Origin: Escherichia coli
GTDB taxonomy: Bacteria; Pseudomonadota; Gammaproteobacteria; Enterobacterales; Enterobacteriaceae
Assembly (NCBI RefSeq): GCF_024298765.1
Contig: NZ_CP101210.1
Reading direction: 5' to 3' (one strand)
Length of the DNA stretch: 64,000 bases
Numbering within the stretch: position 1 is the stretch's first letter; the number at the start of each line of letters is the position of its first letter. The notes beneath the pieces were generated by a model. That model worked only from the letters and a program-made list of their open reading frames with translations, was not told where the DNA came from and did no database searches. Made by a program: the position numbers and the translations under genes. Below are positions 49,569 through 50,081 of the stretch, one piece after another.

Positions 49569-50081
49569 TTAGCTGAGGCGTTGAGGGCCAGCACGGATGC
49601 CTTGCGCCTGGCTTATCCAGACGGGCGTGCTGAATTTTGCTTGCGGGGTAAAATGCGCATAATCAATGCGATAACCCTTTTCAGACGGCGTGCCTTCCTG
49701 GGTCAACAGCGCGCTGAGCGTATCCAGTAATGCAAGATGTTGCGCCTGAAGAGGCAAAGATTCTTCAGCAACGGGCAGCGTTTGCGGTGCCATTGCGAAG
49801 GAAAGATGACGGATTACCGTGCGAATGGCATGTTGATGCCAGTAATCAACGGAATAGTTCGAATTCGGGCGGCGCGTGTTCGCTTCCAGCAAGGCCAATT
49901 GACCAAAGTTAACTTTGGCTGAAGGCTCGTGGTTGCGGGTTGTCGCTTTTGCGGGCGCGTTTGGTTCGGCGGCGTTGCTGAGCGCAGGCAAACCTAAACT
50001 CGCCGCGACCATCCCTAATAAGAGATGCGGCCAGAAGTAGCGTTTACCAAACTGTCGCCAGCGCGTCAGTATTCCACTCAC
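49569..50081 (-). CDS. secM: secretion monitor SecM (translation-arrest leader peptide regulating secA)
   Basis: ORF 49569..50234 trimmed to the GTG at 50081 (170 aa); arrest motif [17 protein letters not shown] near the C-terminus. Confidence 0.9.
49584..49634 (-). promoter_or_regulatory. SecM ribosome-arrest sequence coding segment ([17 protein letters not shown])
   Basis: motif present in the translation; coordinates computed from the stop position. Confidence 0.8.

Follow-up and report, generated by a model that had tools for sequence, protein, structure and literature searches.

The secA leader of an Escherichia coli chromosome segment as the canonical SecM translation-arrest locus

Is the open reading frame that precedes secA in this Escherichia coli chromosome the secretion monitor SecM, and does it control secA in the way described for SecM? 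A preliminary description of the window (the whole stretch of DNA analysed, 64,000 nt) had proposed a SecM translation-arrest leader upstream of secA, with a 170-aa protein beginning at a GTG and a 61-bp spacer before the secA start. The strand of secM was not given there; all elements described here lie on the minus strand. We regard it as very nearly certain that the locus is the canonical E. coli secM-secA operon leader, encoded on the minus strand, in which the SecM arrest mechanism controls secA. As such it is already known, a textbook case with nothing new in it. The two genes and the interval between them are located as follows.

49569..50081, minus strand: secM coding sequence, with GTG start, 170 codons and TAA stop (translation, family models and RefSeq).
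49508..49568, minus strand: secM-secA intergenic spacer, 61 nt (ORF coordinates).
46802..49507, minus strand: secA (901 aa), the regulated gene, with its ATG at 49507 (Pfam SecA domains; NCBIfam NF009538, 1316 bits).

Both curated models of the long-type SecM family of Enterobacterales recognize the protein. The 170-aa translation scores 195.9 bits against Pfam SecM PF06558 (cut-off 25; 4.2e-58), with 146 of the 147 profile positions covered, and 231.2 bits against the NCBIfam SecM equivalog NF002799, named "secA translation cis-regulator SecM" (cut-off 100; 168/169 positions). The protein is identical to RefSeq WP_000014320.1. At the DNA level, many E. coli chromosomes match the 891 nt from the 3' end of lpxC to the 5' end of secA at 100% identity, and 5424 of 5426 complete E. 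coli genomes carry a single copy of the region. The RefSeq secM and secA genes of one such 100%-identical chromosome, NZ_CP029164.1, map exactly to window positions 50081-49569 and 49507-46802. Gene order there is ftsA-ftsZ-lpxC-secM-secA-mutT, the same as in K-12, and no feature is annotated on the strand opposite secM in the RefSeq record of the identical E. coli chromosome. Residues 1-165 match the "Secretion monitor" chain of PDB 9vvi/9xwo at 165/165 positions, and residues 132-165 match the SecM chain of PDB 8qoa at 34/34. The latter is a 2.0 A stalled-ribosome structure and the former are stalled complexes (PMC10951299, PMC13249984). The family models, the DNA identity to an annotated secM and the full match to the 9vvi chain together bear out the proposed identification of a SecM leader upstream of secA. 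Its position is likewise as expected, immediately upstream of secA on the same strand, and the spacer from 49568 to 49508 measures exactly the 61 nt first proposed.

Where the gene begins is less obvious from the reading frame itself, which extends well beyond the GTG into the region downstream of lpxC. Two elements of that region enter the argument.

50233..50285, minus strand: lpxC intrinsic terminator, a two-tier hairpin (50285-50242) followed by U9 (50241-50233), from folding.
50089..50095, minus strand: purine-rich element GGGAUGG upstream of the secM GTG, a putative ribosome-binding element.

The upstream protein is LpxC by family models. The hairpin that follows its gene folds at -25.5 kcal/mol (z = -5.08, with 0/200 shuffles as stable) and, with the U9 tract directly 3' of lpxC, is evidently the lpxC intrinsic terminator; a simple terminator scan missed it because the 10-nt loop exceeds the rule of that scan. 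The 150 nt that separate this terminator from the secM start contain no match to the sigma-70 consensus that might mark a secM promoter, and the sole match of the consensus promoter scan lies inside the secA start region, at chance rate.

By translation on the minus strand, the secM start codon is the GTG at 50081-50079. Upstream of it the frame is open for 56 codons, among which the first start-type codon, 51 codons upstream, is the TTG at 50234-50232 (minus strand) that opens the 221-aa maximal ORF in the ORF list. These open codons could be taken to mean that the 221-aa ORF is the real gene and the GTG merely an internal codon. That TTG, however, takes the last two U's of the lpxC terminator U9, and the Pfam SecM match within the 221-aa form covers residues 75-218 only, while the alignment to the NCBIfam SecM model begins at residue 3 of the 170-aa protein. 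RefSeq and K-12 (b0097) both begin at the GTG. Orthologues from other species, which were gathered by one DNA-pattern scan of a genome collection for WIxxxxGIRAGP and are thus a motif-selected set, speak the same way: the codon aligned with the window GTG is also GTG in 62 of the 83 orthologous loci with complete upstream sequence, and the stretch of open frame preceding it in these 62 can be anything between 0 and 62 codons long; in 14/62 the GTG follows immediately on a stop codon. The start of secM has reportedly also been reassigned by experiment, by Sarker, Rudd and Oliver in 2000, a study listed among the references of PMC6993859. We give the longer ORF as the real gene virtually no chance; both the 170-aa length from the GTG and the dismissal of the 221-aa ORF as an upstream over-extension, as the preliminary description had them, are confirmed.

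A start further downstream, at the internal Met24, is also unlikely, because the segment from the GTG to Met24 (WRQxGRRYFWxHLLLG) is conserved at >=90% among orthologues, which would not be so if translation began at Met24. The GTG start is accompanied in orthologues by a purine-rich element (GGAUGG, GGUGG or GGCGGA) at a constant distance upstream. In the window the same region contains an ATG mini-ORF of four codons (AUG GCA AUA ACG UGA; 50078-50092, minus strand) that overlaps the secM GTG. It was considered as a conserved upstream ORF and rejected: it is present in Escherichia only and the same bases read GGTGG in other genera, so its bases are most likely just the ribosome-binding element.

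With the boundaries of the gene settled, the encoded protein can be divided into an N-terminal export signal and a C-terminal arrest peptide.

49971..50081, minus strand: atypical long Sec signal sequence, codons 1-37 (composition and conservation).
49584..49634, minus strand: arrest sequence F150-P166, 17 residues (translation, pattern scan, and identity to the 9vvi and 8qoa chains).
49589-49587, minus strand: Gly165 codon GGC, in the P site of the stalled ribosome (stall site per PMC4737659, PMC10951299).
49586-49584, minus strand: Pro166 codon CCU, in the A site of the stalled ribosome (stall site per PMC4737659, PMC10951299).

The signal sequence was judged by composition only, and by this measure the Sec-type signal of long-type SecM is present. 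Its n-region carries the basic residues R7, R9, K13 and R14, there is no acidic residue in 1-37, the hydropathy maximum of the whole protein falls at residues 19-34 (the top windows start at 19-23), and a c-region S-N-A is followed by AEP. The region is conserved in orthologues, with WRQxGRRYFWxHLLLGxVAA at >=90%. We take the cleavage site to be after residue 37; the SecM cleavage site was reportedly placed by Sarker and colleagues in 2000. From the end of the signal at residue 37 to Pro166 there are ~129 residues, the spacing of the long SecM class, for which the median is 131.5 residues; the short class has a median near 71 (PMC10987492).

Retranslation places the arrest motif, which had been reported near the C-terminus, at residues 150-166 (49634-49584, minus strand). 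All specified residues of FxxxxWIxxxxGIRAGP are present (F150, W155, I156, G161, I162, R163, G165 and P166), including the essential R163, G165 and P166, mutation of any of which abolishes stalling (PMC4737659). Searched with a degenerate DNA pattern for WIxxxxGIRAGP, the 64-kb window gives one match and 100 dinucleotide-preserving shuffles give 0, so the match is not a chance one. Given the identity of this protein to the SecM that has been studied, ribosomes would be expected to stall at Gly165/Pro166 and to be released by Sec-dependent pulling.

A signal-like N-terminus followed by a 130-residue body would also suit an ORF that encodes mainly a secreted protein with a periplasmic function of its own, next to secA only by accident. 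Against this, few columns outside the signal and arrest regions are conserved at >=90% (mainly YWxQHAxRxVIRxLSFA), and secA is the neighbour, with its start 55-199 nt downstream, in 92 of the 120 motif matches listed, these 92 coming from Enterobacteriaceae and the Morganella/Photorhabdus group. Exported SecM was also reportedly found to be rapidly degraded in the periplasm, by Nakatogawa and Ito in 2001. We hold a periplasmic role with incidental adjacency to be exceedingly improbable.

The length of the spacer varies among these loci, from 55-70 nt in Enterobacteriaceae to 80-96 nt in the Photorhabdus/Xenorhabdus/Providencia/Morganella group. Two loci have spacers ~120-130 nt longer than those of their relatives (L099, 182 nt; L109, 199 nt), which suggests an insertion between secM and secA. 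In Photorhabdus, with spacers of 80-85 nt, the secA leader reads UGAGAUGUAAYUAAYUAUG (loci L007, L018, L019, L026, L030, L035, L045, L049, L062, L081, L083, L094, L095 and L114), so that an AUG-UAA "start-stop" stands right after the Shine-Dalgarno (SD) sequence, 9 nt (three codons) upstream of the secA AUG and in frame with it. Xenorhabdus (L076 and L105, with spacers of 93-94 nt) shares the AUG-UAA but embeds it in slightly different surroundings, UGAGAUGUACUAAUUAUG, where it does not share the reading frame of the secA AUG. The AUG-UAA of these two genera could be a variant initiation arrangement.

The other 28 of the 120 motif matches listed lack secA downstream and are mostly from GC-rich Actinomycetota and Proteobacteria. 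They were considered as new arrest peptides and set aside, as their number is about that expected by chance from the information content of the pattern. The most attractive of them, the Thalassobacillus match (L044, 1014-1048, minus strand), was likewise rejected, as it lies out of frame inside a histidine-kinase gene.

For arrest at Gly165/Pro166 to act on secA, the mRNA must link the stall site to the secA initiation region. The elements relevant to this link are listed below.

49515..49518, minus strand: secA Shine-Dalgarno core GAGA, 7 nt upstream of the ATG.
49572..49585, minus strand: 5' arm of a predicted helix, CUCAACGCCUC-GC, in secM codons 166-170 (MFE and centroid fold, pair map).
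49516..49529, minus strand: 3' arm of the predicted helix, GCGGGGCG-UUGAG, overlapping the secA SD region (MFE and centroid fold, pair map).
49524..49538, minus strand: predicted local hairpin CUCCGC-AAC-GCGGGG (fold of the RNA 3' of the stalled footprint).

When the 151 nt at the secM-secA junction are folded, 49585-49572 pairs with 49516-49529, including the GAG of the secA SD, in both the MFE and the centroid structures. The fold has z = -2.78, and 1/200 shuffles is as stable. Because the Pro166 codon occupies 49586-49584, the first base of the 5' arm (49585) is the second of the A-site codon. A ribosome usually covers ~15 nt of mRNA 3' of its P site, and with this usual footprint we infer that ~12 of the 13 helix pairs would sit in the mRNA channel of the stalled ribosome. 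The locus thus has, as a predicted structure, the SD-sequestering stem-loop with one arm at the stall site that is characteristic of a SecM leader.

Energies were compared between free RNA and a stalled model, in which only the RNA 3' of the stalled-ribosome footprint may fold. In free RNA, 8.8 kcal/mol is needed to open the secA initiation region (-15..+6), versus 3.4 in the stalled model. Across 90 orthologous loci the medians are 6.5 (free) and 3.6 kcal/mol (stalled), with a drop of >=2 kcal/mol in 58/90 and no drop in 14/90. The unpaired probability of the SD in the window changes little (0.35 free vs 0.38 stalled), and the opening energy is the more informative of the two measures. In the stalled model the local hairpin, which competes for the GCGGGG of the 3' arm, forms once the ribosome holds the 5' arm.

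Conservation of the helix was evaluated in an alignment of 70 Enterobacteriaceae sequences of limited divergence, whose loci were selected via the arrest motif and whose 5' arm is also coding. The UGAGA at the secA SD is invariant in this Enterobacteriaceae alignment. For the long-range helix, 87% of cells are paired among the 69 distinct sequences, versus 32-52% when the partners are slid by 1-3 columns. Variation in the helix is mostly from C-G to U-G, and compensatory covariation in the 70-sequence alignment does not exceed that in shuffles (2 double-change pairs vs 2.0 expected), so the comparison demonstrates a conserved pairing potential and is not independent proof of the structure. The local hairpin has 74% of cells paired and a covariation score below that of shuffles, in a stretch where indels make the alignment unreliable. 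An Rfam scan of the secM-secA element at E <= 1 returned no family match. A separate feature of the orthologous loci is that the four codons for QRLS that follow Pro166, and the precise spacing between arrest site and stop codon (49569-49583 in the window), are kept in nearly all Enterobacteriaceae secM (L003-L121). This conservation beyond the stall site fits a constraint on the RNA, as the 5' arm of the helix, rather than one on the peptide.

These features agree with the mechanism described for SecM, in which an intergenic stem-loop sequesters the secA ribosome-binding site until a stalled ribosome disrupts it and secA is translated, while SecA/SecYEG engages the signal sequence of nascent SecM and the resulting pulling force ends the arrest (PMC4737659, PMC10951299, PMC10987492). 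Prolonged arrest leads to secA induction (PMC10987492), and structural work of 2026 describes a second release route, via the ABCF protein YheS (PMC13249984). Applied to this locus, the sequence of events would be as follows. In free mRNA, secM codons 166-170 would pair just upstream of the secA start, burying the SD region and leaving SecA at its basal level. As secM is translated, the nascent FxxxxWIxxxxGIRAGP would bind the exit tunnel, and P-site SecM-Gly165-tRNA would be kept from forming a peptide bond with A-site Pro166-tRNA. The stalled ribosome would cover the 5' arm of the helix and free the 3' arm, making secA initiation possible. With export working the arrest would be brief, and with export failing it would be prolonged, so that secA translation would follow secretion status. 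Gene identity and boundaries, the motif, the signal-like N-terminus, the predicted helix and the geometry of that helix relative to the stall site come from the present analysis; for ribosome arrest, its relief by pulling or by YheS and the effect on regulation we rely on the literature. The locus is expected to work as SecM does because, bar one residue after the arrest site, it encodes the same protein on which the mechanism was established. The coupling of secA translation to secretion status that the preliminary description had assigned to the locus is therefore the published mechanism (PMC4737659, PMC10951299, PMC10987492), and the RNA helix that it requires is predicted here.

Ordinary translational coupling could produce a similar dependence of secA on secM, with a read-through ribosome melting the helix, or re-initiating 61 nt on, and with the peptide arrest inessential. 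Because the 5' arm lies in secM codons 166-170, every translating ribosome must open the helix in passing, and the opening-energy model cannot tell a paused ribosome from one in transit. Against coupling of this kind, the arrest motif has no changes from that of SecM in the solved structures of stalled ribosomes, and WIxxxxGIRAGP stands 4 (rarely 3 or 8) codons before the stop in 92/92 secA-linked loci, a motif-selected set. The experimental record weighs in the same direction, with stalling lost in the R163, G165 or P166 mutants (PMC4737659) and secA induced by prolonged arrest (PMC10987492 and references there). We judge coupling without arrest to be very unlikely, and retain SecM-mediated arrest as the mechanism controlling secA.

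How closely the locus follows the reference was determined by alignment to SecM of K-12 (b0097, NP_414639.2 / WP_000014321.1), also of the long type, the comparison named in the preliminary description as the means of checking its call. The two proteins are identical at 169 of 170 residues, and K-12 has the same GTG start, arrest motif, 61-nt spacer, helix and gene neighbours. Over the 891 nt, K-12 MG1655 differs by 17 substitutions (98.1% identity). The only amino-acid change in SecM is Ser170 (AGC, with G at 49573) in place of the K-12 Thr170 (ACC), a residue past the stall site and outside the arrest motif; in the spacer, K-12 has A where the window has G at 49540, and SecA differs once (E550A). 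At least 2520 of 5426 complete E. coli genomes carry the Ser170 allele, as counted with a 55-nt query centred on the SNP for which the megablast seed needs the G allele, and QRLS is the commonest SecM ending in other Enterobacteriaceae among the motif matches listed. Judged from these sequences, the K-12 Thr170 is the less widespread form.

Both variant bases contribute to the predicted fold: G49573 pairs with C49528, and G49540 extends a small AU hairpin in the spacer. When both are swapped to the K-12 bases, the MFE goes from -17.4 to -13.6 kcal/mol and the opening energy at the secA start only from 6.4 to 5.8 kcal/mol. No meaningful functional difference from K-12 is expected of the T170S/G49540 allele. 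It is conceivable, though in our view unlikely, that these extra modelled pairs shift basal SecA or the induction range slightly, relative to the laboratory strain, in roughly half of the E. coli lineages and in most Enterobacteriaceae.

Beyond E. coli, the closest comparison is with the short-type SecM of Pasteurellaceae, such as Mannheimia succiniciproducens (SecM_small; PF10818 / NF038363), which likewise combines a signal sequence with a C-terminal arrest peptide upstream of secA (PMC10987492). Short-type SecM differs in its motif, RGSP, and in a median signal-to-arrest distance near 71 versus ~129 here (PMC10987492). The protein from the window scores below the cut-offs of both small-type models (PF10818, 20.9 bits against 26.1; NF038363, 25.9 bits against 45). 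In VemP-secDF2, MifM-yidC2 and the ApdA/ApdP RAPP peptides, arrest likewise uncovers a ribosome-binding site further downstream and is relieved by whichever export machinery is being monitored, and the RAG/P motif of SecM and the RAP/P motifs of RAPP peptides inhibit the peptidyl transferase centre similarly (PMC10951299, PMC10987492). VemP, MifM and ApdA/ApdP are unrelated to SecM in sequence, act on other target genes and occur in other taxa, and we claim no membership in these groups for the present locus.

The significance of the result lies solely in correct annotation: a call made from the letters only proved right, down to the GTG start, the spacer and the dismissal of the longer ORF. 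Every open question that could be tested at this locus can already be tested in K-12. What the locus represents is the founding "monitoring substrate", secM-secA, in which a nascent peptide stalls the ribosome that makes it and so signals how active the export machinery is.
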